Origin: Verrucomicrobiota bacterium
Lineage (GTDB): Bacteria > Verrucomicrobiota > Verrucomicrobiia > Limisphaerales > UBA1412
DNA length: 64,000 bases
Direction of reading: 5' to 3'
Assembly: GCA_023230105.1 (NCBI GenBank)
Contig: JALNXY010000003.1
Span: 10,998 to 74,997, forward strand
Shown: positions 2,853 to 43,632 of the stretch, piece by piece
Numbering within the stretch: position 1 is the stretch's first letter
Layout: the number at the start of each line of letters is the position of its first letter
Position numbers and translations under genes: made by a program
The notes under the pieces: generated by a model
Seen by the model: the letters and a program-made list of their open reading frames with translations, nothing else
Database searches by the model: none
What the model was told of the DNA's origin: nothing

Positions 2853-4424
2853 ATGGTTAGTCTTCACCAGCCTAATGAATTAGATTCTCAATTCTTTCGA
2901 TGCGCAGATGATTTCTTTCTTGATCATTCTTCACAAGCGCTCACATATGACGATGTGTCCTTAGCAACGTTGTACTCTGAGATTTTACCCAGAGATACCC
3001 AGCTGGACGCCCAACTCGCAGAGGGTATAGAACTCCATATTCCTGTCATTTCAGCGGACATGGATACGGTCACTGAGTCTCGCATGGCTATCAGCATGGC
3101 CCTGAATGGAGGCTTGGGCCTTATCCATTACAACATGACTGAAAAGGATCAACTTGCAGAAGTTTCTCGGGTTAAGAGTCATGTACACGGATTAATCCAG
3201 GATCCGGTCACTATTTCACCAGATAAATTGATTGGAGACCTGCTCCAAACGATTGAAAAAGAGAAATACACCTTTAGCACATTTCCCGTTCTGGATCAGG
3301 ATGGCAAACTGTTAGGGGTATTGCCCGCACACGTATTGAACGCACGATTCGCCAAGCTTCGAGTCATAGACGTGACTATCCCCCGCTCACATGTTTGCAC
3401 CATCTTGCAGAGCGAACTGGGCAATGACGCCATCACGGCGGCCGACGATTATTTCACAAAAAACCCCATGGAGCATAAGCTGATCGTTGTGGATAACAAC
3501 GATCGGCTTTGTGGACTCTTCACATTAAGTGACATCTTAAAAATCAATCAGGAACGGAGAGCTCAGTTTAAAGCCGCTCGCGATTCTCGTTTCCGTTTGC
3601 TTTGTGGTGCTGCCATTTCCATCATTAGGGATGCTCAGGGGAGAATGGATCGCAAGCGGATGATGTCCCACATCGCAACACTTCTGGATCGAGGTGCGGA
3701 TGTCATCGCTGTTTCCACGGCTCACGGACACACTCGCGATGTCGGTGCGGCAGTTAAAGCTATACGCGACGCATTTCCAAAATTACCCATCATTGCCGGG
3801 AATGTAACCAGCGGTGCAGGCGTAGAATTTTTGGCCGAATCTGGTGCCAATATCATCAAAGTAGGGCAAGGTCCCGGCTCTATTTGCACAACACGTGTTG
3901 TTGCCGGTGTGGGAATTCCTCAACTCACAGCCCTCTATGTGGCATCAAAAGCGGCTGAGAAAAGAAAAGTCACAATCCTGGCCGATGGTGGAATTAATAA
4001 ATCAGGGGATATCGTAAAAGCTTTGACTCTGGCTCAGGGTGTTATCTGCGGCGGTCTGCTGGCCGGATGTCACGAGGCTCCCGGCGAGATTATTGAGATT
4101 GGAGGGAAACTGTACAAACAGTATCGAGGAATGGGAAGCCTTGCGGCCATGCGAGCCGGATCCGCCAGTCGATATGGTCATCTCAAATCTGACACAACTC
4201 GAAAAATGGCGGCAGAGGGAATCGAGGCACTTAAAGAAATTGCCGGCTCTCTGGATAATGTACTCTCTCAGTTGATCGGAGGCATACAATCCGGCATGGG
4301 TTATCTGGGCGCTCAAACTCTGTCAGACCTCCGAGGGAAAGCCCGTTTTGTACAGGTCAGCCCTGCAGGGCAACGTGAGGCGGTCCCGCATGACGTGGTT
4401 GAACTCAAGACAACGGCGAAATAG
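2853..4424 (+). CDS. guaB: IMP dehydrogenase with CBS pair
   Basis: ALTYDDVSL near the N-terminus, GGLGLIHYNMT, CBS-like insert, catalytic loop GQGPGSICTTR, GGINKSGDIVKAL. I moved the start to ATG 2853 (MVSLHQ) because the 26 upstream codons of the track ORF look non-native. Confidence 0.85.
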   Translation: MVSLHQPNELDSQFFRCADDFFLDHSSQALTYDDVSLATLYSEILPRDTQLDAQLAEGIELHIPVISADMDTVTESRMAISMALNGGLGLIHYNMTEKDQLAEVSRVKSHVHGLIQDPVTISPDKLIGDLLQTIEKEKYTFSTFPVLDQDGKLLGVLPAHVLNARFAKLRVIDVTIPRSHVCTILQSELGNDAITAADDYFTKNPMEHKLIVVDNNDRLCGLFTLSDILKINQERRAQFKAARDSRFRLLCGAAISIIRDAQGRMDRKRMMSHIATLLDRGADVIAVSTAHGHTRDVGAAVKAIRDAFPKLPIIAGNVTSGAGVEFLAESGANIIKVGQGPGSICTTRVVAGVGIPQLTALYVASKAAEKRKVTILADGGINKSGDIVKALTLAQGVICGGLLAGCHEAPGEIIEIGGKLYKQYRGMGSLAAMRAGSASRYGHLKSDTTRKMAAEGIEALKEIAGSLDNVLSQLIGGIQSGMGYLGAQTLSDLRGKARFVQVSPAGQREAVPHDVVELKTTAK

Positions 4425-12008: not shown

Positions 12009-15000
12009 ATGAACCCATCCATTACAGAAAACGTTAACAATAAGAAAAAGCTTTTTGCGTGGCTTTTTGCGCTACTTTTCCTGGGGAGTATCTCAGCCAA
12101 AGTAAATGCCCTCAACACCCTCCCGCTGGAGACGGCCAATACAGAGCCTGTAGTTGAGGCAGAACGCGCCTTGAGCGCTGAAAACCCGGTGGATATCTAC
12201 GAGATGAGGCTTTTGGCCGGTCATCTCTACCACTTTGAATCCATTGGAGCCGATGATCCCAGGGCTTTTCTCTATGATACGCAAGACTTGAGAGGTGCTC
12301 CTGTGGTTTTCGATGATGATTCCGGAGAAAACCTGAACTTCAAGTTTTCCTACATTCCCGAAATCGGCGGTACTTATTACCTAAAAGTGGAGATGTTTAA
12401 CGGCTACACCAATTTGGTCTACAGTCTACAGCATTTCGTAGCGGCCAATGATCCCTGGGAGCCGGCCGATAATGAGCTTCAGTCGGCAACGATTTTGCTG
12501 CCGGGAGAAGACCTTCAAACACACGGAGTCCACTTTCTGCATCCTGCCGATGTACGTGATCTATTCTGCGTTACGATGAAGGCAGGAACCCGTTACACCG
12601 TAGAATCGGATAGCCAGGGCCATGTTCAGGCTGCGCTCTATCAGTTTAATCAGGAAGGAGTGCTTGAGCTTTTGACATTGAGCCAAAGTCAATATGGTGA
12701 AGACAACACGCAGCTTGAGAATTTCAAGCTGGTCTATCAACCGGTTCAGGATGGTAACTATTACCTGGAAGTGACCCCTCTTTACAGGGATGGCAGCGCC
12801 GTTTATACCCTGAGTTACATAGCTCAGAGTGTGAATGAACTCGGTAACGACACCCCGGAGACCGCGTTGGAGCTGCTGCCCACAACCCAAAGGCAAGCCA
12901 TCAATCCTCGCATACTCAATGATACCTACCCGAGGGATTACTTCAGGGTCTACATGAAGGCCGGAGCAACCTACACATTTGAATCGCTGGTGAAGTCTCA
13001 GCTCATGGCCCGGATTTATGCCCTTGGCGATTGGCAGACACCGCTGGCGAGCGACTCCAATTTTACGCTTCATTTCCGGCCGCCGGTGGATGGATATTAT
13101 ATTCTCCTCGTAGAGCGAGCCTTCCCGAAGCTGGTGGAAGATGCCGACTATACGCTTCTATACCTTTACGAGCCTGAGGATGTTCTCGGTTACAACGAGA
13201 GCGCTGAAACCGCAACGCCCTTGAACAATTTTGGGCAGGAGCCCCTTGAGGTTGGCCCCTATACATTGGGTTCCAGTAATCCCAAAGATGTTTTTGCGAT
13301 CTATTTGCCGATCGGTTTCAGCAATTTTGAGGTATCTGCAAATGGAGATATTTCGGCTCTGCTCTATGATTCAAGCGATCTGCAAACAGCGCTGGGCAAT
13401 CCAAGCCATATTCTGAACAGTTACACCTTGGGGCTAAATTATCGTGTTCACCGTGAGGGTACCTACTATCTGGTGGTGAAGAAGATGAACCCGGATGCCA
13501 CACCCACTTACAGCATTTCCCATTGGAGTACAACGACAAATGAATGGCGTGACCCACAGGATATAAATGAGGCTGTAACTCTTCTGGATATCACTACAGA
13601 AACGCAATATTTTGGTCCCAGAAAGCTTGGCGGTGCTAATACACAGGATGTCTACAAATTCTATCTGGAAGCAGGTGTTCGCTACTGGTTTGACTGCGAT
13701 AAAACTAGTTATTACTTGGATTCTTATCTCTATGACAATCCGAACATAGTCAGCGGCCATGTTGCGAGTTCGTCGTATTGCGACATCGCTTATATTCCCA
13801 GCCAGAGCGGTGTTTATTACCTGAAGGTGACAAACTCTAACAGCACTTACACGCTCAAGTATTCACGTCAGGGTTGGGACCCGTGGGACCCGATTGATAA
13901 CACGGCTGAAGGAGCGACTTTGTTGGTTCCGACCACTGAGGAGCAGAAGCATGGCCCCCATACGCTCAACGCTTCAGATACGCAGGATGTCTACAAATTC
14001 TATCTGGAAGCAGGTGTTCGCTACTGGTTTGACTGTGATAAAACTAGTTATTACTTGAATTCTTATCTCTATGACAATCCGAACATAGCCAGCGGAGAAG
14101 TTGCGGTTTCGTGGTATTGCGACTTCACTTATATTCCCAACCAGAGCGGTGTTTATTACCTAAAGGTGACAAACTCTAACAGCACTTACACGCTCAAGTA
14201 TTCACGTCAGGGTTGGGACCCGTGGGACCCGATTGATAACACGGCTGAAGGAGCGACTTTGTTGGTTCCGACCACTGAGGAGCAACAGCACGGCTCCCAC
14301 ACGCTCAACGCTTCGGATACGCAGGATGTCTTTAAATTCTATCTGGAAGCGGGTATTCAATACTGGTTTGACTGTGATAAAACTAGTTATTACTTGGATT
14401 CTTATCTCTATGACAATCCGAACATAGTCAGCGGCCATGTTGCGAATTCGTCGTATTGCGACATCGCTTATATTCCCAGCCAGAGCGGTGTTTATTACCT
14501 GAAGGTGACAAACTCTAACAGCACTTACACGCTCAAGTATTCACGTCAGGGTTGGGACCCGTGGGACCCAATCGATAACACGGCAGAAGGAGCGACTTTG
14601 CTGGTTCCGACCACTGAGGAGCAACAGCACGGCTCCCACACGCTCAATGCTTCGGATACGCAGGATGTCTTCAAATTCTATCTGGAAGCAGGTGTGCGCT
14701 ACTGGTTCGGTTGTACTAAAAATAGTTATTACCTGTATTCTCATCTCTATGACAACCCGAGTCTGAGCGGTGACCATGTTGCCTTTGCGTGGTATGGCGA
14801 CTTCACATATACCCCCAGCCAAAGCGGTGTCTATTATCTGAAGGTGAGCAATGGCGATACTTACACGCTCAAGTATTCGCGTCAGGGTTGGGACCCGTGG
14901 GATCCACTCGATAACACGGCTGAAGGAGCTACCCTGCTTATCCCCACCACTGAGGAACAGCAGCATGGATCTCATACGCTTAATGCTTCAGATACGCAAG

Positions 15001-18000
15001 ATGTCTTCAAATTCTATCTGGAAACAGGTGTGCGCTACTGGTTCGGTTGTACTAAAAATAGTTATTACCTGTATTCTCATCTCTACGACAACCCGAGTCT
15101 GAGCGGTGAACATGTTGCCTTTGCGTGGTATGGTGACTTCACTTATACCCCCAGCCAAAGCGGTGTCTATTATCTGAAGGTGAGCAATGGCGATACTTAC
15201 ACGCTCAGGTGGAATGGCGGTTTGGGGGATCGTTCACCGTCACCCTTAGGGATACAAGCGACTCTGGAAGAGCAAAGTGCCATTACCGTGAGTTGGGAGG
15301 CATTGCCTGATCTCTACTACCAGGTATATCGAAGCATTCACGAAAAAGGAACAAAGGAACTGGTCAGTAATTGGATACAGAGTAATCTTTACGCAGATGA
15401 CTCTGCCTCCTTTGAAACCCGATACTACTATTGGGTTCGCTCTGCAATAGATCCTGAGGGTGGAAACGCAGGTAATTTCAGTCTTTTTGCCGAAGGTTTC
15501 CGTCCGGCAACCTTCGCGCCGCATTTCCTGCAAGAACCCGAAGCCCAGGTCTCCTATGAAGGTCAGAGGGTCGTTTTCCGTGCTGAAGTGATTGAGTATC
15601 CCGCTTACACCTACAGCTGGCAATGGTTTAAAAACGGAGTGGAAATTGAAGGAGCGACCGAATCCCGGCTGGTTTTGGAGGGAGTTACGCTCATTGATGC
15701 AGGCAATTACTCCGTCAGTGCAAGCAACGAGATGGGCACCACTCTTTCAGCTCAGGCGCCGCTGACCCTAGTAGCAGTTCCGGCGACGATCTACGTTAAT
15801 GCCCTGGATCAACACTATTTCCTGGACCTGCCCCCCCCGGTTTTGACGTGGATCGCTCGGGATTCTCAGGGTAATGATGTGACGGAGCGCATCATTGGTA
15901 AGCCGCTCCTGCAAATCCCCAAAGAAGCCTATAACACCCCGGGGAATTACCAGATCGGCATAGAAGCGGGCACACTGAGCGGCGCCAACTTTATTTTGGC
16001 TGGTGCATGCTGGGTTACCGAAAAACCACTCTTTACCCTAAGCGCCCAGAATGCAGTCCGTGTATTGAGTGTTGAAAACCCGGCTTTCGCCTATTCTGCG
16101 GTGGATCGCTCGGGGCGTGATGTCAGTGCCGAACTCGAAGGAGAGCCATCAATCCTCTGCGATGCAAACCTTCTGAGTCCTGCGGGCGAATACCCGATTC
16201 ATATCTGGACTGGCACGCTAAGTAGTGAGAAGGTCGACTACAAATTTGAGGCCGGGGTGCTCAGTGTTATTGATACGGAAGATGCCCCGGTGATTCTGGA
16301 GCAGCCTGCCGACAGCTTCCCGATTGTGGGGCTACCCTTCAGCCTGAATGTTGTTGCCGAAGGCGCCTTCCGCTATCAATGGTTTAAAGATGGCGAGCCG
16401 ATTACAGGCGCAATTGCTGCAACATTGCAATTCAATGCAGCATACAAAGAGCAGAGCGGAGTCTACACGGTGGCCGCGATCGGTTACGGCCAAACAATAA
16501 GCCGTGAAGCCCGTGTTCTGGTGACTGACGCACCTGAAGGGGAACTGGGTATCCCATCTGGCAGTCTGTATGACTTCCCGGTTTTTGGCATGTGCCTCAA
16601 CGGTGATTATGCTTATCTGGCCTGCGGAACCAATGGTCTGCGAATAGTGAACGTGGCTGATCCGGCCAATGTTTTCGAGGTGGGTGTCTACATTCATGAG
16701 TTTGAACCTGAAGAAGGCGAAGATGGTGAACCGATTGAGCCTCCGCCGCCGATTGAGTTCTATGATGTGGATGTCGTTGGATTCATCGCCTGTACTGCGA
16801 CAGGTAGTACCGGTTTAATGGTGCTGGATGTCTCCAACCCGGCTGAACCGACGTTGCTGGCCTGGGATGCCGGGGAAACAACCTATCAGGTTCGGTTGAG
16901 CAACGCGATTGAAACCGAGACTCAGGCTGATATCTACGCTTATAGCATCGTAGACAGCACTTCAAGCCTCAGGGTGAGAAGAATCAGAGTCGATGATAAT
17001 ACCGGTGTCACACTTACTTACATTCGCAGTGTGGGAACTGGGACTCGTGCAAATGATATCTACCTGAGAGAGGGACGGCTCTATCTGTCGCGGCCCGATG
17101 GAACTCTATTGGTATACGACATCAGCACTACGCCCGATAACCCCAAACAGATTAATAACGTTTGGCTTTCCCGAGAGATGTTGGCAGTTTATGCCACTGA
17201 CCACTATCTCTTTGCGGCCTGCGGCAATGATGGCGTGAAAATATATCTCTTCCGAAATAATGGAAGTCTCAAGCTGGTGAGCCAGGCATTGACACCGGGC
17301 TTTGCGGAGCTCTTGAGCGGCTATGGGAACAACCTCTACGTGGGTGATTCCTACGGAGGCTTGCAAGTCATCAGCCTTCTGAATCCCGCAGCCCCGAGGC
17401 TGGTCGGCAACTACCCCAACCTTGTAGGAATACAGGATATCAAGGTGGATAATGGAGTCGTTTTCACTACGGGTGAAAACGGTTTCAAACCGTGCGATAA
17501 AACTATCCAGACCGATACCATTCTGGTTCGCGCATTGGATGAGGGCAAAGCTTTCGGAGTTGATAACCCCGAATGGCGTTACCTGATCACTGATGGTGTC
17601 GGCAACGACCTGTCCGATTACATTGTGGGCGATCCGCTCATCAGCTCTACCGCAACGGTGGACAGTCCTCCGGGGCAATACCCCATTTTGATCTCCGCCG
17701 GCAGTCTCTATTCACCCGACTATCAGCTCACATTCCAAAATGCCACCCTGACAGTCTTTGATATGGACGCCATCTCATACAACCTGATTGTTCCTGAATC
17801 AGTAGGGCGCCATGCTCTGGCCACACTCTATGTGGAGTATGAAAATACAGGCACCTTGCCGATTACCTCCCCGGTGCTGGTTGTTTATGGTTCAGAAAAA
17901 GCGCTCATGACACTGGATGCATCCATCGTGACGGCCGGTTTCTGGACCTCAAGCAAGCCTCAGGGCTTTAACGACACCATTGAGATATTGGCCAGCGGAC

Positions 18001-21000
18001 AAACTCCGGGCGTATTAATGCCGGGAGAAAAAGGCAGAGTACCAGTCTATTATGCGGGTCTTCTTCAGCCCTGGAGCTGGGAACCCAAAGTAGACTTCTA
18101 CATTACGGTCATGGCCAGTAAAGATACTTACCCCATGAATTACGATGCACTCTATCAGACGCTGAATTTTGGCACTGAAGACCCTGAGGCGATCAGCGTC
18201 CTATGGAACAACTTCAAACAAATGGTAGGGCCGACCCGTGGGGATTACGTGAGCATGCTCAGCCGCAATGCTCAGGCCCTTTATGCAATGGGTGTTACGG
18301 AAAACAGCGTTCATCGTTTGCTTGAGTATGAGTTCCTGAAAGACGCCGGTTTCTCGGTAGTATCAAGCCTGGCTTCGAGCGTAGATATACAGGTGCAGGC
18401 CCCTGCAACGTCTTTACGCTTCAACCGGGTTTTCTATCATGGACTTCTGCCCAGTTACAGACTCAATCTGGAAGCACCGGGTTGCAGCGCGCTGGGAAGA
18501 GGCTGGGATCATAACTGGAATTACCGCCTGGTGCAGATAAAGAAGAATGAACCAATTATTGTTCGCACGCCCGGCGGTGCAGAGCGTGTCTTCCAACCCG
18601 ATAGCCGCTACAGTAACCGTTATTTCTCCTCCCCGGGTGATTATGGCGTACTGACAGCCCGCTGGGATGGTGAGGCTCTGCAGGATTGCACACTTGTGGA
18701 AGCCAATGGCAACACGTTTAAGTTTGACTCTTCAGGGCTTCTTATTCAGATGTTGGCTCCCGGCGGCAAAGCAGGTGTGACACTCACCTACACCGAAGGA
18801 TGTCTGGTGAAGCTTACGCACTCTGCGGGCCAAACACTGAGCTTGAGCCGTGGCGGCGGCAAGTACAACGCAATTACGTCCATTGCCGATCAGGATGGCC
18901 GCTCGGTGAGCTACACCTATACAGCCGATGGCGAGCAGATAGAATCATTCACCGACGAAAATGGGCTTGTCACCTCCTACAGCTACAGCCGAGGCAATAA
19001 AGCCAACTACTATATGCTCAAATCCGTCCTCCATAGGGATGCCACACAATCTAACTATACGTATGATGGTATGGGACGCATTGTGAGCTTCACACAGGCT
19101 GATGGGGCTCTGCCCTTGACTTTCAGCTATGAGAATAACGGCTTGATCCATCAGACCGATGCATTGGGAGTAAATATGTCGTTCCGGTTCAACGTAGATG
19201 GAATGATCACTGAAGTCGGAAATACCGATGGCACAACACTAAATAACGAGTATGACTCACAGAAAAATCTGATCCGGTATAGCGATCGTCAGGGGAACAT
19301 CTTCAAGTTCACCCACAAAAACGGACACGTTACCCGGGCTGATCTGCCAAATTCTCTCTGGACTCAGTACACTTGGGATGGAGGCTTATTGAAGAGCTTT
19401 ACCAATCCGAAGGGTGCCGTTACGCGGTTTGATTACGATCAGGGGATGCTCTCGGGCATTCGCTATGCAGATGGCACAGTCCAGCGCAATGAGTTTGATG
19501 CGCAGGGCAACGTTAAAAAGGTGACTAGCCGCCGTGGTGCCTCTGTTGAGTTTGTGAGTGATGAAGACGGCCGCGTGTTGACCAAGCTCTATGAAAATGG
19601 CGAACGCGTGGAATACACCTACAGTGCAGATGGTAGAATGGCAACTGCCGCCTCCTTTGACGCTGAAGGCAAAACCAAAGAAACGATTCAACTGGGATTC
19701 AATGAAAAGAAACTCCTGACCAGTATTGAACACGCCAATGGCCGTAAGATCACGTACACCTACAATGAGCGCGGTTATCGTCAAACTATGAGTGCGGATG
19801 AGCGTACCGTGAGCTACACCTATGATAATCTGGGCCGCTTGGCCCAAGTTCTGGAAGGAGAGACTGTTCTTGTCTCTTACACCTATGATGCTGCGGGTAA
19901 GCCTACCGGCACTCAGATGGGCAATGGCGACCAGATAATCAATACTTACAATAGCGAGGGCAATGTGAGCAGTGTTATCTCTTACAATGCTGCCGGTACA
20001 ATGACCTCTCAAATCCAGTACACCTGGGATAAGGGATTGATGCAGACCCAAACGCTCAATGAAGGTCAATGGAGCTATGAATATGATGTCATGGGGCAGC
20101 TGGTACGTGCGGAGTTTTACTCTTACACTCCGGAAATCCAAAGTTACACGTTGGAATACTCGTACGATGGAATGGGTAATCGTACTCAATCGCGCGTCAT
20201 TCAGGGCGAGACCGCCCATTTGACGGACTATGCGGCCGATAACATGAACCGTTATACGTCCATCAATGGAGCCGCGCTGAGCTATGACCAGGATGGAAAC
20301 ATGACCGGACGCGACCAGTGGGTTTACGAGTATGACGACGAGAACAGACTCTTGAGCGCCTCCAATAGCTCGACCCATTATCAATATGAGTACAGCATAT
20401 TGGGCTATCGCTCAGCCGTGACACTGAACGGAGTTCGCACTGAGTATCTGGTGGATCCAGTGGGGCTTGGCTCGGTAATTTCCGAGTATGTTGGAGGATC
20501 CCTGACGCCCAATGTTCAGTATACCCAAGGCTTGCAGTTGGTGAATAAAATCTCCGGTGACCAAAGCTGGTGGTATCACTACGACGGAATTGGCTCAACC
20601 CTGAACGTTACCGATAATGATGGACTTCTGGTTAACCACTACCTCTATGAGCCGTTTGGGGCTGTTGCCTGGGCTCTGGAGACCATCCCGAATCCCTTCC
20701 GGTTCGTGGGGGCAAATGGCGTAATGGATGATGGCAACGGAATTCATTACATGCGCGCCCGTTATTATTCTGCAAACTTGGGACGATTCTTCTCTGAAGA
20801 CCCGTTGGGCATGAGCTCTGGCGATCCAAACTTGTACAACTACGCCATGAATAATCCGCTGATGCAGATTGATCCTTCAGGCGAAGTTGTACCGCTGGTG
20901 ATATTGGCTTGGGGTGCTGTGGGTGCTGTTGTGGGTGGAACAACCTACGTCATCACGACAGGTATCACAGGTGAAACCAGAACCTTCGGCAAGTTTGCGG

Positions 21001-31852: not shown

Positions 31853-32869
31853 ATGAAGAGCGTATCGTCTGGGATGTTTCCATTTTACCGCCCTCGCAGG
31901 CTTAGGCGTACTCCTGCCCTAATATCTACATTTAAGCAAACCTCCTTAAGGAAAGAGCAGTTAGTTTTGCCTTTTTTTGTTACAGAGGGTACTCAAAAAC
32001 GAACCCCCGTTAACTCCATGCCCGGAGTACACCAACTTTCCATCGACGAGCTATTGACTGAAACCTCTGCAGCTGTAAAAACCGGTGTACAAAGTATCCT
32101 CCTCTTTGGCATTCCCTCAAAAAAAGACGAACTGGCATCTGAAGCTTATGCAGCTAACGGGATAACACAAAAAGCGGTACGAGCTCTTAAAAAAGAATTT
32201 CCGGATATCATAATCATGACCGATGTTTGCCTTTGTGAGTACACAAGCCATGGTCATTGCGGAGTAATTAAGAAGGATAAACAGGGACAATTTGTCGTTG
32301 ATAACGATGAGTCTTTGGAGTTTTTGGCAAAAACGGCTGTAAGTCATGCAGATGCCGGAGCTGACGTGGTCGCTCCAAGTGACATGATGGATGGTCGGGT
32401 CAAAGCAATTCGCACCGAACTGGATAAGGCCGGTTTCAATCAGACGATCATTATGTCCTATGCAGCAAAATATGCTTCCGCTTTTTATGGCCCCTTCCGC
32501 GAAGCAGCAGAGTCTGCACCTAAGTTTGGCAATCGCCGAGCTTACCAGATGGAGAGTGCCAATACGGATGAAGCACTGCGAGAAGTCGCCATGGATATTG
32601 AAGAAGGCGCAGATATCGTGATGGTCAAACCGGGCTTAGCCTATCTGGATATACTCCATCAAGTTAAAAGAACATTTCGTTATCCAACGGCCGTTTACAT
32701 GGTCAGTGGAGAGTATGCTATGATCAAGGCGGCAGCCGAAAAAGGCTGGATAAATGAAGAACAAATTATGATGGAGTCACACCTTTCAATGGCGCGAGCT
32801 GGAGCAGATATTATTATCAGTTATGCCGCTAAGGAAATTTGCAACAGCTTAAATAAAAATATGCAATAA
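31853..32869 (+). CDS. hemB: porphobilinogen synthase (Zn-type)
   Basis: FYRPRRLRRTPAL, cysteine-rich Zn site DVCLCEYTSHGHCG, Schiff-base region MVKPG, SGEYAM. Confidence 0.9.
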   Translation: MKSVSSGMFPFYRPRRLRRTPALISTFKQTSLRKEQLVLPFFVTEGTQKRTPVNSMPGVHQLSIDELLTETSAAVKTGVQSILLFGIPSKKDELASEAYAANGITQKAVRALKKEFPDIIIMTDVCLCEYTSHGHCGVIKKDKQGQFVVDNDESLEFLAKTAVSHADAGADVVAPSDMMDGRVKAIRTELDKAGFNQTIIMSYAAKYASAFYGPFREAAESAPKFGNRRAYQMESANTDEALREVAMDIEEGADIVMVKPGLAYLDILHQVKRTFRYPTAVYMVSGEYAMIKAAAEKGWINEEQIMMESHLSMARAGADIIISYAAKEICNSLNKNMQ

Positions 32870-32888
32870 ATTTTAAGAAGAATTTAAT

Positions 32889-35243
32889 ATGATAAAAAAT
32901 TGGAAAACAAAAATTCTTGGATACTCCGGTGTGTTGATTCTAGCAATCTTCTGCACGACGGTATCTGTCACTTCACAAAATAATGTGCCTACCTTGCCTG
33001 GGGAAGGCGGAACTCAAAAAGCAATTGAGTTGGATTATTTTCCGGACCGCCTCCATGCATTCATATTCAAAAACTGGCCCCTGGTACATGCAGAGCGATT
33101 GGCAAAAGTACTGGAAACAAAAACTGAAAACGTTGTTCAAATCGCTGAATCAATGGGGCTGCCACCGCAAGACCCTAAAAAAATACTTCCCGCATGGAGC
33201 TCAAACCGAGGATATATCACCGTGCTGCGGCGCAATTGGCACCTATTACCTTATGATCAACTCTTGACCTTATTAGATATCGACCGGCAAGAACTTCAAT
33301 TCCGCCTGATAGAAGATGACTTTCTCTATGTCAAATTGGGTAATTTGAAGCCGAGCTGTGAAAAATTGACTTATGCAGAACCTTCCCCGGAAACAAAAGC
33401 TCAAGCCAAAAGAATTTCTGAAATACTCCAGCAGGAACTGAAGGAGGGTTCTGCTACTGTTGACGAAGAGCGTTTTGAATTTATTAATCGTTTGAAAGAT
33501 GTTTCTCCGGATATCTCCACTCCGGATACAACCGACGATTCTGAGTTTGAGCTGCGATACATTTCATCCTACTTTGCCTCTTTTGGAGAACCACTGCTGG
33601 ATCCGGAAATCGAGTCCTGCCCTGAAGGCCTGCTGCAGCGTTTGTCTGCTACAGGTGTTAATGGGGTTTGGATCCACACTGTACTGAGAACATTGGCTCC
33701 GCCTACTGAGGATTTCCCCGAATTTGGACAAGACCATGAACGGAGAATCCAAGGGCTTAATAAACTCGTACAACGCGCAAAGAAGTACGGTATCGGTATT
33801 TATCTTTACTCAAATGAACCACGCGCGCTGCCAGTGGAATTCTTTAATAAACCGGGACGTGAAAATATGAAGGGTGTCACAGAAGGACACGTTGCGACTA
33901 TGTGCTCTTCGGACCCAAGGGTGCGTAAGTGGCTTACAGAGTCTTATGAGTATCTATTCAAAAACGTTCCTGATTTGGCCGGAGTCTTCACCATTACGGG
34001 CTCCGAAAACCTCACCACTTGCGCTTCACATTACCAACACAAAAATTGCGCTCGTTGCTCAAGTAAAGATTTTGCAGAGATCACGACAGATATCAATACT
34101 CTCATAGCCGAAGGCGTCCATCGTGGCAACCCCAAAGCAAAAACAATTGTCTGGGATTGGGGATGGCAGGATCAGTTTGCTGAAAAAATTATCAAAAATC
34201 TCCCCAAAAATTGCTGGTTTCAATCAGTAAGCGAGTGGAGTCTCCCTATTAGCAGAGGTGGAGTCTCCTCAGCAGTGGGAGAGTACTCTCTTTCCGCCGT
34301 GGGGCCTGGACCACGCGCGCAAAAACATTGGCAATACGCCCAAGAAGCAGGACTTAAAACCGTGGCAAAGGTGCAAGTGAACGCAACATGGGAATTCGCC
34401 TCTATACCTCAAATTCCTGTCTTGAATCTTGCTGCTCAGCATGCCTCCAATCTCTCCAAACAAAAAATCAATGGGCTTATGTTGAGCTGGAGTTTAGGTG
34501 GTTATCCTTCAATAAACCTCTCCCTTTTTCGAGATGTAGGAACCGGTAAAATGAGCACCGAGGAATGTTTAAAGAATGTTGCCGTGAGTAATTATGGTGA
34601 AGCTGCCAGCGATACCGTGTTGGAAGCTTGGAAACTTTTTTCTGATGGTTTCTCTCAATATCCTTACAGTGGAGGGACTATCTATTTCGGACCACAGCAC
34701 GTTGGACCAGCCAATCCCCTTTATTTAAAACCCACTAGCTACAGAGCTAGCATGGTAGGTTTTCCGTATGACGATTTAACGGGATGGTGTTCCATTTACC
34801 CACCAAATGTTTGGATTCAACAGATGGAACTGGTCCGCAATGGTTTTTCAAAAGGGTGTAATAAGTTTGAAGAAGCTATCGCCCTTATGCCTCTGAAAAA
34901 ACAAACCGAGGCTCGAATGCAATTAGGACAATACCGTGCTGCGGAAATGCACTTTGCTTCCTGTGTAAACCAAGCCCGTTTTACAGATGCACGTAACTCC
35001 TTTAACCGGCTTCCTGAAGATGCCTTGATTGGTGAGAAGAAAGCTCTATTGGCGATAATGGAGAACTCTGTGGAAAATGAACTCATTGTTGCCAAAAAAA
35101 TCTATACCCTGGTTAAGTCTGATTCTGCCATTGGATATGAATCCTCCAACCATTATTTTTATATACCTCAAGACATTATGGAAAAAATCGTCAATTGTAA
35201 ATATCTACTATCAAAAATTTTAATAATTAAAAATAGTATTTAA
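32889..35243 (+). CDS. secreted or anchored hypothetical protein, possibly glycoside-hydrolase-like
   Basis: N-terminal signal or anchor (ILGYSGVLILAIFCTTVSV). Central segment GVNGVWIHTVLR...KYGIGIYLYSNEPRA resembles TIM-barrel glycosidase-like proteins. No family recognised with certainty. Confidence 0.3.
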   Translation: MIKNWKTKILGYSGVLILAIFCTTVSVTSQNNVPTLPGEGGTQKAIELDYFPDRLHAFIFKNWPLVHAERLAKVLETKTENVVQIAESMGLPPQDPKKILPAWSSNRGYITVLRRNWHLLPYDQLLTLLDIDRQELQFRLIEDDFLYVKLGNLKPSCEKLTYAEPSPETKAQAKRISEILQQELKEGSATVDEERFEFINRLKDVSPDISTPDTTDDSEFELRYISSYFASFGEPLLDPEIESCPEGLLQRLSATGVNGVWIHTVLRTLAPPTEDFPEFGQDHERRIQGLNKLVQRAKKYGIGIYLYSNEPRALPVEFFNKPGRENMKGVTEGHVATMCSSDPRVRKWLTESYEYLFKNVPDLAGVFTITGSENLTTCASHYQHKNCARCSSKDFAEITTDINTLIAEGVHRGNPKAKTIVWDWGWQDQFAEKIIKNLPKNCWFQSVSEWSLPISRGGVSSAVGEYSLSAVGPGPRAQKHWQYAQEAGLKTVAKVQVNATWEFASIPQIPVLNLAAQHASNLSKQKINGLMLSWSLGGYPSINLSLFRDVGTGKMSTEECLKNVAVSNYGEAASDTVLEAWKLFSDGFSQYPYSGGTIYFGPQHVGPANPLYLKPTSYRASMVGFPYDDLTGWCSIYPPNVWIQQMELVRNGFSKGCNKFEEAIALMPLKKQTEARMQLGQYRAAEMHFASCVNQARFTDARNSFNRLPEDALIGEKKALLAIMENSVENELIVAKKIYTLVKSDSAIGYESSNHYFYIPQDIMEKIVNCKYLLSKILIIKNSI

Positions 35244-35245
35244 AA

Positions 35246-36094
35246 ATGATTTTAGGTGCACATATGTCCACCGCTGGTGGGCTGGAACAGGCAATCCGAC
35301 GCGGAGCAGATGTTGGGTGCGATTGCATTCAGATATTTGTTAAAAACAATATGCAGTGGTTCGGCAAACCATACACCCCGGCAGAACTCTCCGCTTGGAA
35401 TCAGGAAGTCGCTTCTGGAAAGATGCAGATCATTTTTGGGCATACAGGCTATCTGATCAATTTAGGAGGGCCCGAGGGTGAGAACCGTAAAAAATCTGTA
35501 GACTCTCTGAAGCAGGAAATTGAATTGTCCACCCAACTAGGACTCCCATTCTTAGTAATGCATCCGGGGGCTCACCTCAAACAAGGTGAAGAAATAGGGA
35601 TTCAACAAGTCATTTCCGGTCTGAATGAGGTTTTTAGTGAAACGGTTTCACCCACCCGAATTGCGTTAGAGGTCACTGCCGGTCAGGGAACATGTCTGGG
35701 AGCAAAGATGGAACACTTAGCGGCCATTTTTGATGGGGTCAAACAGCCCGAGCGCCTCGGAGTTTGTCTGGATACCGCACATCTCTTTGCAGCCGGATTT
35801 GATATTCGCACTCCGGAAGGCTGGGATATGGTTCTCACTAATCTCGACTCATTGATAGGCCTGTCCAACCTTCTGGGAATACACATGAACGACTCCAAAG
35901 TGGACTTGGGGTCGCACGTGGATCGACATGACCATATTGGCAAAGGTAAAATTGGCGTAGAGCCTTTTCGGCACATAGTGAATGACTCGCGATTAGAGCG
36001 CCTTCCCGGTTCCTTGGAAACGCCCAAGTCCAAAGATTGTCATGAGGATCGGGAAAATCTGCAGTTACTGAGAGAACTCATAAAACAAGGTTAA
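35246..36094 (+). CDS. nfo: endonuclease IV
   Basis: MILGAHMSTAGG, VMHPG, CLDTAH, HMNDSK, DRHDHIG. Confidence 0.85.
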   Translation: MILGAHMSTAGGLEQAIRRGADVGCDCIQIFVKNNMQWFGKPYTPAELSAWNQEVASGKMQIIFGHTGYLINLGGPEGENRKKSVDSLKQEIELSTQLGLPFLVMHPGAHLKQGEEIGIQQVISGLNEVFSETVSPTRIALEVTAGQGTCLGAKMEHLAAIFDGVKQPERLGVCLDTAHLFAAGFDIRTPEGWDMVLTNLDSLIGLSNLLGIHMNDSKVDLGSHVDRHDHIGKGKIGVEPFRHIVNDSRLERLPGSLETPKSKDCHEDRENLQLLRELIKQG

Positions 36095-36098
36095 TATT

Positions 36099-36941
36099 TT
36101 GATCTTTAAAGGTAAAAATTTTGAATTTATTTTTCCTCGTCCTACTTTGATAATGGGGATATTAAATGTTACTCCAGACTCATTTTCAGACGGAGGTTCT
36201 TTTTTCGATACAGATAAAGCAATTCAGAGAGCGCTATTGATGGAGAGTGAAGGTGCTGAAATTATCGACGTGGGGGCCGAATCTACTCGACCGGGCTTTA
36301 AAGAAGTAACTCCTGAAGAAGAATGGGGCCGGCTTTGCCCAATAATTACGGAGCTAAAAAGGCAAATAAAAATCCCTCTCTCAGTCGACACACGCCATGT
36401 CGAAGTCGCTCAATTAGCGTTGAAAGCGGATGCTGATATTATTAACGATGTCGGATTGATGCGCCCAGAGGAAAAAATGTTCCGACTGATGGCTGAGTCC
36501 GGAGCCGGTTACATCATGATGCATTCATCCCCCATTCCACCTGAAAACCGGGCTCCACAAGAAATTGTCAGCTCTTATTTTGGTAAGACATTATCCCGCT
36601 GCGAAAAAGTGGGTATGAACTCCCACCAAATAGTTCTGGATCCGGGAATTGGTTTCGGAAAAACGGTTGGGCAAAATTTATTGTTGATTAGAAGTCTCAA
36701 TCACTATACAAAGTGGCAGAGACCCGTATTGCTGGGAGCTTCTCGAAAATCTTTTATTCGAGGTTTTCCCGGTGGAGCCCTGACTCCGAAAGACCGACTG
36801 GGTGGAAGTTTGGCCGCCGCTTGTTTTGCAGTGAGTTTGGGGGTTCACATTCTGCGAGTGCATAATGTGAAGGAAACTTTGCAAGCCATACGTCTAACTG
36901 AATGGTTAGAGGGTAAAAATGAACTGGAGCCCAATCTATAG
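36099..36941 (+). CDS. folP: dihydropteroate synthase
   Basis: GILNVTPDSFSDGG, IIDVGAESTRPG, SVDT, DPGIGFGKT, GASRKSF. TTG start. Confidence 0.9.
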   Translation: MIFKGKNFEFIFPRPTLIMGILNVTPDSFSDGGSFFDTDKAIQRALLMESEGAEIIDVGAESTRPGFKEVTPEEEWGRLCPIITELKRQIKIPLSVDTRHVEVAQLALKADADIINDVGLMRPEEKMFRLMAESGAGYIMMHSSPIPPENRAPQEIVSSYFGKTLSRCEKVGMNSHQIVLDPGIGFGKTVGQNLLLIRSLNHYTKWQRPVLLGASRKSFIRGFPGGALTPKDRLGGSLAAACFAVSLGVHILRVHNVKETLQAIRLTEWLEGKNELEPNL

Positions 36942-37770
36942 CGATATTATTAAAACCATAACAGAGGTAACTATCCTGACAGTTGCCATCTATTATGTTT
37001 TGAAATTTATTAAAGGCATTCGCGGGGCAGCTGTTGTTACAGGCTTTTTCACAGCGTTAATCATCGTTGCATTTTTAGCCATTGTTCTGCACCTCCAAGT
37101 CCTTACTTGGATATTAAGCTGGTTTGTCGGTTTTTTTGCGATATCCGTGCTTGTACTCTTTCAATCCGAAATCAGACGGATGATTTCAGAAATTGGCTCA
37201 AACAGAGTGATTGTTTCCGCGAGGGAGCAACGTGAAAATATAGAGGTCATCATCCAGGGAGCCAAACGACTGGCGGAAGAGCGCTATGGGGGATTAATAG
37301 CTGTCGAGCAAGGGATTAACTTGTCTGAGATAACAGAAGGAGGCATCGTTGTAGATTGTGAAGCCACTCCGGAAATGCTTGAAACAATCTTCTATCCCAA
37401 TAACGCTATTCACGATGGCGGGGTATTGATGAAGGGCGATCGAATCGCTAAAGCAGCATGTGTTTTTCCACTTTCTCTTCGGCAAGATTTAAGCCATTCC
37501 ACCGGGATGCGCCACCGTGCAGGATTGGGGCTTTCTGAAGAAACGGATGCCGTTGTCATTATTGTATCGGAGGAGACCGGATATATCAGCTACGCATATA
37601 AGGGAAAGCTTCACCGAAATGTATCGGAAGAAGATCTTCGGGCATTTTTAAGCCTCATATTTCTGCCTAAGAAACCAAAGCCCAAACGAACCAGCAAGTG
37701 GAGTCGTTTGCTGATTCGCTTAAAAATTCAGCGCTTGTTCCAAAAAAGAAAGGGGACGGCAAATACGTGA
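36919..37770 (+). CDS. cdaA: diadenylate cyclase CdaA (c-di-AMP synthase)
   Basis: Three N-terminal transmembrane segments, then a DAC domain with HDGGVL and TGMRHRAGLGLSEETDAVVIIVSEETG. Overlaps folP by 23 nt. Confidence 0.9.
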   Translation: MNWSPIYSDIIKTITEVTILTVAIYYVLKFIKGIRGAAVVTGFFTALIIVAFLAIVLHLQVLTWILSWFVGFFAISVLVLFQSEIRRMISEIGSNRVIVSAREQRENIEVIIQGAKRLAEERYGGLIAVEQGINLSEITEGGIVVDCEATPEMLETIFYPNNAIHDGGVLMKGDRIAKAACVFPLSLRQDLSHSTGMRHRAGLGLSEETDAVVIIVSEETGYISYAYKGKLHRNVSEEDLRAFLSLIFLPKKPKPKRTSKWSRLLIRLKIQRLFQKRKGTANT

Positions 37771-38363
37771 TGAAAAATTTTCTTTTCAACAATTTGCTGA
37801 TGAAAATATTCGCTCTGGTTTTGGCTTTGATAGTATGGTCAGCCGTCCGAATGCAAATCAGCAAAGGGGCCCAGACCTGGAGCTCACGCATGATTACAAC
37901 CACCACTTTCACACAAATACCGATCAATATCATGCAAGTGCCTTCAGACAATAATAGCTATGAGCTCATCCCCCCCTCCGCTACTGTTAGTATTTCCGGC
38001 TCAAGACTCAATGTAAATGCCACCAAACCGGATATGATTACTCTTTTTGTTACCGTTACCCCCGAAGAAGCAGAAGAAGCTCCCCTGACTCAAAACACAA
38101 ATAAAGGGGTAATGAATAAAAAAATTCAGGCTAAAATACCCACCGACGTCACTCTGGGGACCATTGAACCTTCTACTGTCAGGCTCATCACTAAAAGGGT
38201 AGTGAAAACTAACGGCATCTCCGGTAATAATCTTTTACCTGATTCCAGCACGGCATTTTCTCAGGAAGGCTCAGTAGATACTAAAAATGATTCTGATCGT
38301 ACCGAGCTTGAGACTGCTACACGCCCTCCCCTCAATACTAGCCCGGCAAATATTGAAAAATAA
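37770..38363 (+). CDS. cdaR: CdaR/YbbR-like regulator of CdaA
   Basis: The ATG overlaps the cdaA stop (GTGATG). N-terminal anchor LLMKIFALVLALIVWSAV, then YbbR-like beta modules. The classic position is directly after cdaA. Confidence 0.6.
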   Translation: MKNFLFNNLLMKIFALVLALIVWSAVRMQISKGAQTWSSRMITTTTFTQIPINIMQVPSDNNSYELIPPSATVSISGSRLNVNATKPDMITLFVTVTPEEAEEAPLTQNTNKGVMNKKIQAKIPTDVTLGTIEPSTVRLITKRVVKTNGISGNNLLPDSSTAFSQEGSVDTKNDSDRTELETATRPPLNTSPANIEK

Positions 38364-38680
38364 TCGCTCAACTCTTCTTTCACTACCTTACCAATATTTC
38401 CTCCGAAAACAACCTTTAGAAACTGCATTACGGGGTATTGTTTTCCCGAAAGGGAAATTATGGGCAGCCTGACTATAGGCGGATGTTAAACCTCAATTAT
38501 TGCGAATGAACTTCAATCATAAATTCTGGAAAACGCCTTGCCTTTTACTTCCAAATGTGGCTATCCTTACCGCGGACGTGGGTGGACTGAGCAAACGAAC
38601 TGCCGAAGATGCTGATGCCATTTTTTGATTGTATACAGCAGTGCGGTAACAAGCAGTCTCACGGTTAATAGACGCATAAC

Positions 38681-41020: not shown

Positions 41021-41077
41021 AAAGCTGTCTTAAAGTGGCCTTCCTGTTTGCATGGAGGCAGATAAATAGCTTAGATC

Positions 41078-41110
41078 AAGAGGCCGGTTGAATCCGGCCT
41101 CTTATTTTTA
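41078..41110 (+). terminator. rho-independent terminator after the S8 protease gene
   Basis: AAGAGGCCGG-TTGAAT-CCGGCCTCTT followed by ATTTTT. Confidence 0.75.
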
Positions 41111-41121
41111 AGCAAAACAGT

Positions 41122-41150
41122 TTGACTCATCGGTGTTTTTTGTGCATAGT
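41122..41150 (+). promoter_or_regulatory. candidate sigma70 promoter for the FHA-fprA unit
   Basis: TTGACT, a 17-nt spacer, then CATAGT, ending about 22 nt before ATG 41173. Confidence 0.3.
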
Positions 41151-41172
41151 CACAGCCAGTTGCGTTATTGTT

Positions 41173-41640
41173 ATGCCTAAACTGATCGTTTTAACTGAAG
41201 GTTTCAAAGGAAAGACTTGTGAGCTTAAAGAGGGAGTCACAACCGTGGGTCGTGCTGATGACAACACCTTTTGTATACCGGAGGATTCAGTTTCAGGGCA
41301 CCACTGTGAAGTCATTCTCAAAGGTAACGAGGTCATTATTAAGGATTTAAACTCCACCAATGGTACCTATATTAATGACGATAGAGTTACTGAGGCGCCT
41401 CTTAAAGCAGGGGTAGTTTTGAGACTGGGCCAATGTGAACTAAAGCTTGATGATGGTACTTCTTTTAAGAAGGTAATAGAATCTCATCGTGGTGGGGTTA
41501 AGTTGGATGAGGTCGGAGCTGGTAATGTTTCTGCCAATCCTGCATTTAAGAAAAAGGATAACAAGCTGAACCTTTACATGCTGGGCGGCGGGGCTACTGT
41601 GGTTGTTCTAATTCTGGTCTATTTACTCTTTGTTAAGTAA
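41173..41640 (+). CDS. FHA-domain protein with C-terminal transmembrane anchor
   Basis: TVGRADDNTFCIPEDSVSGHHCEV...IKDLNSTNGTYINDDRV. C-terminal anchor LYMLGGGATVVVLILVYLLFV. Start moved to ATG 41173. Confidence 0.8.
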   Translation: MPKLIVLTEGFKGKTCELKEGVTTVGRADDNTFCIPEDSVSGHHCEVILKGNEVIIKDLNSTNGTYINDDRVTEAPLKAGVVLRLGQCELKLDDGTSFKKVIESHRGGVKLDEVGAGNVSANPAFKKKDNKLNLYMLGGGATVVVLILVYLLFVK

Positions 41641-41663
41641 TTTCATTATATTTTTAATGTTTT

Positions 41664-42854
41664 ATGGCAGGTAAGCTGATTACGTCCGGTGTGCATTATG
41701 TCGGTGTTTCACACTATGATCGGAGGTTTTTTGATGCTTTAGTGCCCACTCCTGAAGGCACGACTTATAATGCCTATTTGGTCGAAGGAAAGGAACGGAA
41801 TGCTCTCATTGACACGGTTGAGCCGGAGTTTAAAGAGCTCTTTCTACATAACCTGAAGGCCACTGGAGTTAAAAAAATAGACTATGTTGTCTCAAATCAC
41901 GCAGAGCAGGATCACTCGGGCTGCGTGCCTGATCTTTTAGCACTTTTTCCGGAATCAAAGCTGGTTACCAACGAAAAATGCAGCAACATGCTTCGAGACT
42001 TGATGCCAGATATCCCTGCTGACAGGATTATCACTATCAAGGATCACGATACTTTAGACCTTGGGGGCCGGACACTGGAATTCATCATGGCTCCTTGGGT
42101 TCACTGGCCGGAAACGATGTTTACCCTGCTGAAGGAGGAAAAAATCCTCTTCACCTGCGATCTCTTTGGCTCTCACTTGGCGACTTCTGACATTTTTCTT
42201 GATGACCCTCGCCTTTTCTACGAACCCATGAAAAGGTATTACGCTCAGATTATGATGCCTTATCGCGGGCAGGTGGTTAAACGGATTGAAACCGTGAATT
42301 CGCTGGAACTGAAAATGATATGTCCCAGCCACGGCCCCGCTTTCAAAAACCCGGCACTCCCCTTGGCTCTTTACTCTGAATGGACAAGTGTCACACCTCG
42401 AAATGCTGTACTTATCCCTTGGGTTTCCACTCATGGGGCAACAGCAAGAATGGTTGATCATCTGACAAACGCTTTAGTTCTAAAAGGGATTACGGTTTAC
42501 CCGCATGATTTGGTGGTAGCTGATTTGGGACGTGTCGCCGAAAATCTCGTGGATGTCGCAACGATAGCCCTTGGTTCAAGCTGCATACTCTCAGTGGCTC
42601 ATCCTCTGGCTGCCTATGCGGCTCTATTGGCCAATACACTTAAACCTAAAGCAAAATTTGCTACGTTTTTTGGATCATATGGTTGGAGCGGCATTAAAGT
42701 CCCGGAGCAAATTTTAGGACTTTTGGGCAGTTTAAAGCTTGAGATAATTCCCCCGGTCCAAACAAAGGGTGCACCCACGTCTGATACGTATGCTGCACTT
42801 GACCAGATGGCTGAAGATATTTTCTCCCGCCATTGTTCCCTCGGATTAAAGTAG
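41664..42854 (+). CDS. fprA: flavodiiron protein (FprA-type, metallo-beta-lactamase plus flavodoxin domains)
   Basis: Di-iron motif NHAEQDHSG, WPETMF, a flavodoxin-like C-terminal half, 396 aa. Confidence 0.8.
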   Translation: MAGKLITSGVHYVGVSHYDRRFFDALVPTPEGTTYNAYLVEGKERNALIDTVEPEFKELFLHNLKATGVKKIDYVVSNHAEQDHSGCVPDLLALFPESKLVTNEKCSNMLRDLMPDIPADRIITIKDHDTLDLGGRTLEFIMAPWVHWPETMFTLLKEEKILFTCDLFGSHLATSDIFLDDPRLFYEPMKRYYAQIMMPYRGQVVKRIETVNSLELKMICPSHGPAFKNPALPLALYSEWTSVTPRNAVLIPWVSTHGATARMVDHLTNALVLKGITVYPHDLVVADLGRVAENLVDVATIALGSSCILSVAHPLAAYAALLANTLKPKAKFATFFGSYGWSGIKVPEQILGLLGSLKLEIIPPVQTKGAPTSDTYAALDQMAEDIFSRHCSLGLK

Positions 42855-42975
42855 CTTTGCCTACCGTTTGGATTTTTAATATTCAAACATCTGCTATTTT
42901 TCCTTTTGTGAAATGGATGGTTTACAAATATTCTGCGAACATGCGATTAAAAAACTTACTGTTCGAACGTAGGAA

Positions 42976-43608: not shown

Positions 43609-43632
43609 CTTCCGTTTTCGGGCTGAAGAGGA

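Follow-up and report, generated by a model that had tools for sequence, protein, structure and literature searches.

Known Rhs cages are closed containers that hold the very end of the protein as cargo, and a chain that leaves the cage has been solved only in the eukaryotic teneurins and SGS1. Here, we describe a giant gene on a 64,000-nucleotide stretch of DNA from a Verrucomicrobiota bacterium (contig JALNXY010000003.1, positions 10,998 to 74,997; the whole stretch is called the window). Its 3617-amino-acid (aa) product contains an Rhs cage with an intact protease triad, followed at once by a hydrophobic segment and, further downstream, by a stalk of predicted folded domains. We tentatively favor an arrangement in which the hydrophobic segment belongs to a tethered cargo inside the cage, the chain leaves as in SGS1 and the teneurins, and the cargo is possibly membrane-active on release.

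In Pseudomonas aeruginosa Tse5 (PA2684; PDB 8cp6), the cage chaperones an ion-selective, pore-forming C-terminal fragment of ~16 kDa (PMC10684867, PMC9637101). Tse5 resembles the window protein in its hydrophobic cargo, which is cut one residue after DPxG by two Asp residues and is mostly disordered in the cage (PMC10684867, PMC9637101). In contrast to the window protein, it is delivered by a type VI secretion system (T6SS) via a PAAR-like domain, and its toxin forms the very end of the protein, whereas the window protein carries a Sec signal, lacks an immunity gene, and continues for another 482 residues. Bacterial teneurin-like proteins (TLPs) are surface proteins that combine adhesion domains, a propeller, and a YD cage, and most are predicted to be exported by Sec and signal peptidase I (Sec/SPI; PMC13018210). 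The C-terminal domain (CTD) of BiTLP (PDB 9ifo/9pt5) is hydrophobic, contains a predicted transmembrane (TM) segment, lies inside the cage, and permeabilizes E. coli from the periplasm (PMC13018210). BiTLP shares with the window protein a triad (R2103/D2116/D2140) of the same spacing, but its CTD ends the protein, and immunity genes follow almost all TLPs (PMC13018210).

The mosquito saliva protein SGS1 buries ~230 aa of predicted TM helices (six) in its cage; the chain crosses the wall via a mid-shell opening, and the Tox-SGS domain is located outside. The mosquito proteins SGS1 and SGS4 are similar to the window protein in being giant Rhs-cage proteins in which Gly/Ala-rich predicted TM helices begin directly after the core, with the aspartyl-protease residues kept. 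SGS1 differs in being eukaryotic, in having Tox-SGS outside behind a furin site with no DUF7619, FN3, or DUF11 domains, and in having its cage extended by a propeller. In metazoan teneurins, the chain exits the cage to outside domains; the catalytic Asp residues are lost and the protein is uncut. Compared with the teneurin/TLP superfold, the window protein has a DUF6531 plug and an LVIVD propeller instead of an FN-plug and NHL (Pfam).

The domain order of the window protein, as defined by Pfam and NCBIfam profiles and structure prediction, is signal peptide, many PPC-like repeats, Ig, MBG, LVIVD propeller, DUF6531 plug, RHS repeats, Rhs core, a cassette, DUF7619, FN3-like, DUF11, and a C-terminal tag. 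The N-terminus is a Sec signal, with the position of signal peptide cleavage taken from the AxA rule, and no PAAR or VgrG domain was found by Pfam in the 3617 aa. The gene and the elements of its cage are:

12009..22862, + strand: giant gene, a single open reading frame (ORF) of 3617 aa
12009..12110, + strand: predicted Sec signal peptide, aa 1-34 (KKK, hydrophobic core, cut between VNA and L), with a Kyte-Doolittle peak at aa 23-26
18378..20885, + strand: Rhs cage, comprising the DUF6531 plug (aa 2124-2195), YD repeats, and the Rhs core (aa 2880-2958), up to E2959; assigned by Pfam, NCBIfam, AlphaFold2 (AF2), and Foldseek
20760..20762, + strand: R2918, candidate catalytic arginine, which aligns by spacing with BiTLP R2103
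20799..20801, + strand: D2931, first catalytic aspartate (SEDPLG), aligned to xDPxG of Tse5, RhsP, and YenC2
20871..20885, + strand: DPSGE, aa 2955-2959, with D2955 as second catalytic aspartate and the predicted cut after E2959

The Rhs region is predicted to adopt a closed cage fold. It matches PF05593 (RHS repeats) with 114 bits and TIGR03696 (Rhs_assc_core) with 74 bits against a cut-off of 32.5 bits, the latter over aa 2880-2958 and profile positions 1-75 of 76. An AF2 model based on a 46-sequence alignment gives predicted local distance difference test (pLDDT) scores of 80-95 for the cage region, and the top Foldseek matches of the cage are T6SS Rhs cores, with E values of 1e-51 to 1e-44.

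The Rhs core ends in DPSGE with its D codon at 20871, as the original prediction had stated. The core aligns with Tse5, RhsP, YenC2, and TccC3 across both xDPxG motifs, Tse5 being the best sequence match. R2918, D2931, and D2955 are separated by 13 and 24 aa, a spacing identical to that of R2103, D2116, and D2140 in BiTLP, and each of them is at least 90% conserved in the alignment of 46 relatives. An absence of the protease residues had been named beforehand as an observation that would speak against the prediction; the alignment of the core contains the Arg and both Asp residues. This intact triad suggests that the protein probably cleaves itself after E2959. A cut one residue past the Gly of DPxG is established for Tse5 (between L1168 and I1169; PMC10684867, PMC9637101), BiTLP is cut after L2144 (PMC13018210), and SGS1 is cut between Q2733 and I2734, as backed by mass spectrometry.

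DPSGE had been described as a non-canonical terminus, which overstates the case. The residue preceding the cut is L, M, F, or Q in the aligned solved cases, and in the window protein the position after DPxG is held by E2959 and not by a hydrophobic residue (L, W, M, or F). Among 94 non-redundant relatives, this position is occupied by L in 53 (56%), T in 12 (13%), E in 4 (4%), and A in 4, while eleven other residues occur once to three times each. The corresponding ends are DPDGQ in SGS1 and DPDGE in SGS4. Since the position varies in the relatives and SGS4 has E, DPSGE does not break with the motif, and a glutamate after DPxG is a minority state within the natural range. A polar residue at this position shows a weak association with a directly following hydrophobic helix (Fisher P 0.04, one of several looks).

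Directly behind the core, the cassette is composed of the following elements:

20886..20960, + strand: hydrophobic helix 1, aa 2960-2984 (VVPLVILAWGAVGAVVGGTTYVITT), with a value of 1.99 in a 19-residue Kyte-Doolittle window
20985..21062, + strand: hydrophobic helix 2, aa 2993-3018, with the GxxxG run G2994...A3014 and a value of 1.65 in the same window
21063..21143, + strand: third, weaker Gly/Ala/Thr-rich segment, aa 3019-3045
21144..21413, + strand: polar, Thr/Gly/Asn-rich second half of the cassette, aa 3046-3135

A Gly/Ala-rich stretch was thus correctly placed immediately after the core, and it extends over 86 aa (2960-3045) with two hydrophobic helices. Its composition is 22% G, 19% A, 15% V, and 13% T, with 3.5% charged residues compared with 18% elsewhere in the protein. 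E2989, R2991, and K2995, all located in the loop between the two hydrophobic peaks, carry its only charges. In the 3617 aa, Kyte-Doolittle peaks above 1.4 are limited to the two helices, the signal peptide, and a marginal peak in the propeller region (aa 1596-1599, 1.49). The repeated small-xxx-small spacing proposed for the segment is partly borne out: the in-register run G2994-G2998-G3002-G3006-A3010-A3014 is a formal glycine zipper, but neither the number of small-xxx-small pairs nor the longest run exceeds what the composition predicts (P ~0.23 each; 20,000 shuffles of the 86 residues), and for this reason we dropped the motif as evidence. The true feature is an uncharged hydrophobic helical hairpin, and its spacing is not special. 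The segment is in itself an ordinary example of hydrophobic Rhs cargo.

Ten cassettes of the family described below, this one included, match no toxin or glycine-zipper Pfam family at E up to 0.1, and no match to Gly-zipper_Omp, Gly-zipper_OmpA, Gly-zipper_YMGG, or Rick_17kDa_Anti was found with the cassette (E<=0.1) or the whole protein (E<=0.01). In a rough sum on the Hessa scale, helix 1 comes to ~+2 kcal/mol, but the true signal peptide gives +3.2, a calibration too poor to judge insertion; the hand sum for helix 2 is ~+6 kcal/mol. Directly after the cut, a recurrent first-helix pattern is observed, consisting of hydrophobic-x-Pro, six or seven hydrophobic residues, and Trp (EVVPLVILAW, EVAPVFIAALW, KIFLPAAVLVW, LFIPLAVLGW). 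It is present in P0001 (aa 2960-2969), in the cassettes P0010, P0059, and L082, and in SGS1/SGS4, and may reflect a common way of contacting the cage's inner wall.

The whole cassette (aa 2960-3135) measures 177 aa and 17.4 kDa, the hydrophobic segment forming its first half. Known Rhs cargo has a mass of ~15-16 kDa in cavities of 32,000-44,000 cubic angstroms (PMC13018210, PMC10684867, PMC9637101), and Tc toxins and SGS1 enclose ~200-230 aa. The complete fragment after the cut comprises 658 aa and 70 kDa, which corresponds to an estimated ~85,000 cubic angstroms (1.21 cubic angstroms per Da). The cassette therefore fits the size of known cage cargo whereas the 70-kDa fragment is too large, and from size only we infer that the chain exits. 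The 482 aa of confidently folded beta-sandwich domains that follow the cassette likewise imply that the chain must leave the cage. The residue after the cut lies in the lumen in every solved Rhs, Tc, TLP, and SGS1 structure, and since helix 1 starts one residue after the predicted cut, it would be placed inside a folded cage. The pLDDT is below 30 over precisely aa 2961-3135, and from D3136 onward it is high again (85-98). These low values fit a cargo, because known Rhs cargo is likewise largely disordered in cryo-EM maps.

The domains behind the cassette, at the C-terminal end of the protein, are:

21414..21968, + strand: DUF7619 domain, aa 3136-3320, which begins with DPNEK and is predicted to be an isopeptide-type, CnaA-like beta-sandwich (PF24595, pLDDT >90)
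21969..22313, + strand: FN3-like domain, aa 3321-3435 (pLDDT >90), conserved together with DUF7619 across the family
22314..22598, + strand: DUF11/CLIPPER-type beta-sandwich, aa 3436-3530 (PF01345, TIGR01451)
22599..22859, + strand: C-terminal all-beta module ending in RFYRVSKQ, from structure prediction

AF2 predicts the final 482 aa as four beta-sandwich domains, whose structural neighbors are only generic Ig, FN3, and MG-like folds, and assigns a pLDDT of 85-98 to DUF7619 and the FN3-like domain. The PF24595 match scores 58 bits against a 27-bit cut-off, and K3140 in DPNEK corresponds to the first-strand Lys of the predicted isopeptide-type domain. DUF7619 is a predicted intramolecular-isopeptide domain related to DUF11/CLIPPER and typical of adhesin stalks (bioRxiv 10.1101/2025.04.25.650565). 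The part after the cassette is similar to these fibrillar-adhesin stalks in matching PF24595 and PF01345 and in forming a chain of beta-sandwiches. The C-terminal module has no match in Pfam or NCBIfam. In the host genome, 47 ORFs of at least 150 aa end in [FYW][FYW]R[VLI] within seven residues of the stop, compared with an estimated ~3 expected by chance; ~40 of these 47 share a preceding W...[VL] pattern, and most are very large. The module is all-beta and ~65 aa long, and its [FY][FY]R[VLI] stands two to six residues before the stop. The module thus looks like a lineage-specific sorting or anchoring tag, a candidate function suggested by this recurrence, and as it is common to ~40 large ORFs, the C-terminus would be accessible and not enclosed by the cage. 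It is also observed at 40830-41017 of the window and elsewhere in the genome (e.g., C3, C34, C70, C10, and C67).

We searched for relatives with the C-terminal 718 aa (protein search) and with the start of DUF7619 from six sequences (species-representative genomes). The former yielded ~50 giant proteins of 2000-4100 aa, each with RHS repeats, a YD shell, and DUF7619; the latter yielded 229 stretches coding for DUF7619 relatives, and 59 of the best 75 of these loci are preceded, 66-304 aa upstream and in frame, by the end of an Rhs core. The hosts belong to Verrucomicrobiota, Planctomycetota, Lentisphaerae, Chloroflexota, and Desulfobacterales, with some Betaproteobacteria and one Acidobacteriota metagenome-assembled genome (MAG). 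The order in these related proteins is an Rhs cage, a hypervariable cassette, and conserved DUF7619 and FN3 beta-sandwiches. DUF7619 and the FN3-like domain form a conserved unit of ~300 aa (127 subjects in blastp), beyond which the domains vary. The 94 non-redundant cassettes span 53-305 aa, with a median of 131.5 aa and 13.7 kDa. A strongly hydrophobic segment is present in 27 of them; others are rich in Pro, Gly, Ser, or Cys, and a few contain HExxH. With most cassettes being non-hydrophobic, membrane activity is not a property of the family. HExxH occurs in the cassettes L022, L025, L073, and P0012 (LHEEIHAQ, LHEGVHGG, VHEGVHRT), and the P0042 cassette has a sub-threshold Lnb_N/DUF4105-like match. 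In other species the cassettes may be small enzymes, although no Pfam toxin family was matched.

The hydrophobic segment is a constrained polypeptide and not a neutral spacer, as judged from low ratios of nonsynonymous to synonymous substitution (dN/dS), the absence of indels, the retention of E2959, and its identity in close relatives. A 98%-identical protein is labeled as a Verrucomicrobiae MAG, and an 80%-identical ortholog is found in a Limisphaerales MAG. Relative to the ortholog L011, dN/dS is 0.04 for the hydrophobic segment, 0.03 for DUF7619, 0.04 for the FN3-like domain, and 0.09 for the polar half of the cassette. Relative to L012, where synonymous sites are near saturation, the values are 0.14 for the segment and 0.19 for the FN3-like domain. 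In neither comparison does the segment exceed the flanking FN3-like fold in dN/dS. Orthologs show no indels in the segment and keep E2959; in two close relatives the segment is 100% identical, while their linker is 93% identical.

Based on these observations, we propose a mechanism for the window protein. Sec would export the protein, and the cage would fold outside the cytoplasm. The aspartyl-protease site (R2918, D2931, D2955) would probably cut after E2959, and the two uncharged helices may pack on the inner wall of the cage, as do the TM helices predicted in SGS1. The chain would leave the cage by way of the polar half of the cassette, and from D3136 it would run outside as a four-domain stalk of DUF7619, FN3-like, DUF11, and C-terminal tag. 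After the cut, an N-terminal fragment of ~3000 aa with adhesin-like repeats, propeller, and cage and a C-terminal fragment of 70 kDa would be joined only by the trapped cassette. If the cassette were pulled or released from the cage, the helical hairpin would be free to enter a membrane. The observation that the hydrophobic Rhs cargo tested so far, Tse5-CT and the BiTLP CTD, acts on membranes supports this last step.

The comparison with SGS1 extends in part to the sequence. SGS1 (DPDGQ followed by IAVTLVLMIIGAIVGA...) and SGS4 (DPDGE followed by FAFTL...) align to DPSGE followed by VVPLVILAWGAVGA... through the two helices, with an E value of 0.004 for SGS1. The alignment includes DPxG[Q/E], GAxVGA in the first helix, and, beyond a short polar loop, FAGAxxG in the second. 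We consider the layout to be similar to that of the SGS proteins and do not claim membership in that family, since the helices alone show no significant similarity and Foldseek places the cage nearer to T6SS Rhs proteins. A TLP ranks 15th in Foldseek for the cage, behind T6SS Rhs cores.

Several observations weigh against the proposed topology or against membrane activity of the cargo. The SGS1 match at E 0.004 needs the end of the core in the query, and the cassette alone matches nothing among PDB sequences at E up to 10. A phmmer search with aa 2959-3165 against 1.84 billion representative proteins gave no match, and orthologs of 74-100% identity were likewise not returned, so that this null means no detectable wider family and nothing more. 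A word-indexed search for a terminal zipper of this kind among proteins of 515-1640 aa returned none. Foldseek puts closed T6SS Rhs cages above the teneurins and SGS1 (43rd), and the only solved bacterial TLP, BiTLP, has a shell without an opening (PMC13018210). No immunity-like gene adjoins the giant gene or its orthologs; across 46 loci no conserved or immunity-like downstream gene was found, and the neighbor is often on the opposite strand. About 70% of the family cassettes have no hydrophobic segment, some being pure Pro- or Gly-rich linkers. The lack of an immunity gene, the predominance of non-hydrophobic cassettes, and the continued attachment of the cassette to the stalk weaken the case for a membrane-active cargo.

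A rival reading is a passive role, in which the cassette sits in the cage and the chain exits, but the helices serve just as a plug or latch adhering to the hydrophobic wall and never act on a membrane. Hypervariable cassettes, many of them simple linkers rich in Pro, Gly, or Ser and without potential as toxins, are compatible with such a tether, as are the ten cassettes without a Pfam match, the lack of an immunity gene and of a conserved downstream gene, and a zipper spacing that is not above composition. On the other hand, 86 aa with 3.5% charged residues and two helices are the signature of membrane-active Rhs cargo (Tse5-CT, BiTLP CTD, SGS1), and strong purifying selection with kept Gly positions exceeds the needs of a simple filler. 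Family members also retain the protease triad, which the uncleaved teneurins have lost. We regard a purely passive tether as rather unlikely. The original prediction had offered a membrane-inserting payload or an anchor or linker through which the chain leaves the shell; the segment does stand at the cargo position and the chain must leave the cage, so that elements of both proposals are retained, but the segment does not correspond to a classical toxin.

An anchor in the cytoplasmic membrane would require helix 1 to stop transfer and helix 2 to re-insert, giving a hairpin in the inner membrane of the producer with both large parts of the protein in the periplasm. The Kyte-Doolittle peaks of 1.99 and 1.65 are compatible with this topology, the loop GETRTFGK holds the only positive charges, between acidic or neutral flanks, as the positive-inside rule demands for two outside ends, and an even number of helices keeps cage and stalk in one compartment. 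Nevertheless, helix 1 begins one residue past the cut, deep in the cage fold, where a bilayer is unreachable while the cage is closed, and the cut would leave the cage without its anchor. By the rough Hessa-scale sums, both helices seem marginal as stop-transfer segments, most relatives have no hydrophobic cassette, and in some of them the first helix is amphipathic, with Lys or Glu. Moreover, CTDs of bacterial TLPs can be hydrophobic, and that of BiTLP, with a predicted TM segment, still ends inside the cage (PMC13018210). Such an anchor is thus very unlikely. We attach equally little probability to a classical antibacterial toxin that is freed as a pore-forming peptide by the Rhs protease and a second cut near DPNEK, with immunity encoded elsewhere or unneeded. 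Hypervariable cassettes between conserved flanks do resemble the logic of polymorphic toxins, and some carry HExxH (L022, L025, L073, P0012) or, in one case, a sub-threshold Lnb_N match. Against this, no immunity gene is located upstream or downstream, no gene of any kind is conserved downstream in 46 loci, and there is no sign of a second cut, DPN belonging to the folded DUF7619 domain. The host genome has a single gene of this kind and lacks matching orphan cassettes, whereas its other Rhs genes do carry classical tips.

Giant proteins in which a variable cassette of cargo size separates an apparently active cage from a conserved stalk outside it represent an undescribed but widespread bacterial layout; no published description of DUF7619 behind an Rhs core was found in a literature search whose single match for DUF7619 was the isopeptide survey. 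If the tethered-cargo topology holds, the window protein would provide a bacterial model for chain exit from a YD cage, would suggest an origin of teneurin- and SGS-type layouts, and would illustrate how a hydrophobic and possibly membrane-active peptide can stay soluble while it is attached to a surface stalk. A broader and distinctly unlikely generalization is that such proteins form a widespread bacterial class of "tethered-cargo" Rhs cages. In this class, the adhesin-and-cage fragment would hang by its trapped cargo on a cell-anchored, isopeptide-stabilized stalk, contact or pulling would extract the cargo (here a membrane-inserting hairpin), and the protease-competent cage with an exiting chain would be a bacterial forerunner of the teneurin/SGS topology.

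Two known classes were considered for the segment and rejected. Tox-WTIP, located at the tip of proteobacterial Rhs and PVC toxins, is predicted to form pores with its two helices (Zhang et al. 2012, PMC3482391), and it is similar in being a small, highly hydrophobic two-helix module after the Rhs core (PMC3482391). RxxR and Wx[ST]IP are both absent from aa 2960-3045, and the segment is not C-terminal. The protein does not correspond to a classical polymorphic Rhs toxin either: 482 aa follow the cassette, the downstream gene encodes a GDSL lipase, and no T6SS, PAAR, or VgrG module is present. A classical toxin accordingly finds no counterpart here, with no immunity gene, no toxin or glycine-zipper family match, and a segment that is not at the end of the protein. 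The cassette has no match to Tse5-CT (residues 1169-1317) in PDB sequences, among which the Tse5 shell chain was found with the core query and the presence of Tse5-CT was not checked.

The ten adjoining genes that were scanned are mostly housekeeping genes and include no T6SS component or immunity-like gene; no small membrane ORF was found upstream of the giant gene. The neighborhood comprises:

Upstream: alaS, two cyclophilin genes, a tsaB-like gene, and alr
Downstream: lysC and a diaminopimelate-type decarboxylase gene
22973-23779, same strand as the giant gene and 110 bp downstream of it: secreted GDSL lipase gene
Others among the ten: genes for a LysR regulator and a DUF4230 protein

The downstream GDSL lipase gene is kept in the 97% ortholog locus L011 and not in L012. 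In the distant relative P0008, a GDSL lipase domain is located within the same protein, presumably in the 1232-aa region after the Rhs core.

The host genome assembly measures 2.86 Mb and is 92% complete. It contains one gene of the Rhs-cassette-stalk kind and no orphan cassettes of this type. Its other Rhs cores end in WD[KR]LG[LM] and not in DPxG[L] (e.g., C8:23409-28983, corresponding to L001 and L002; also C15 and C25). These other Rhs genes carry classical short tips and are unrelated to the cage-cassette-stalk architecture. One of the short tips has a metallopeptidase-like motif (FIHEMTHY), and several ORFs at these other Rhs loci are short and resemble orphan cassettes.

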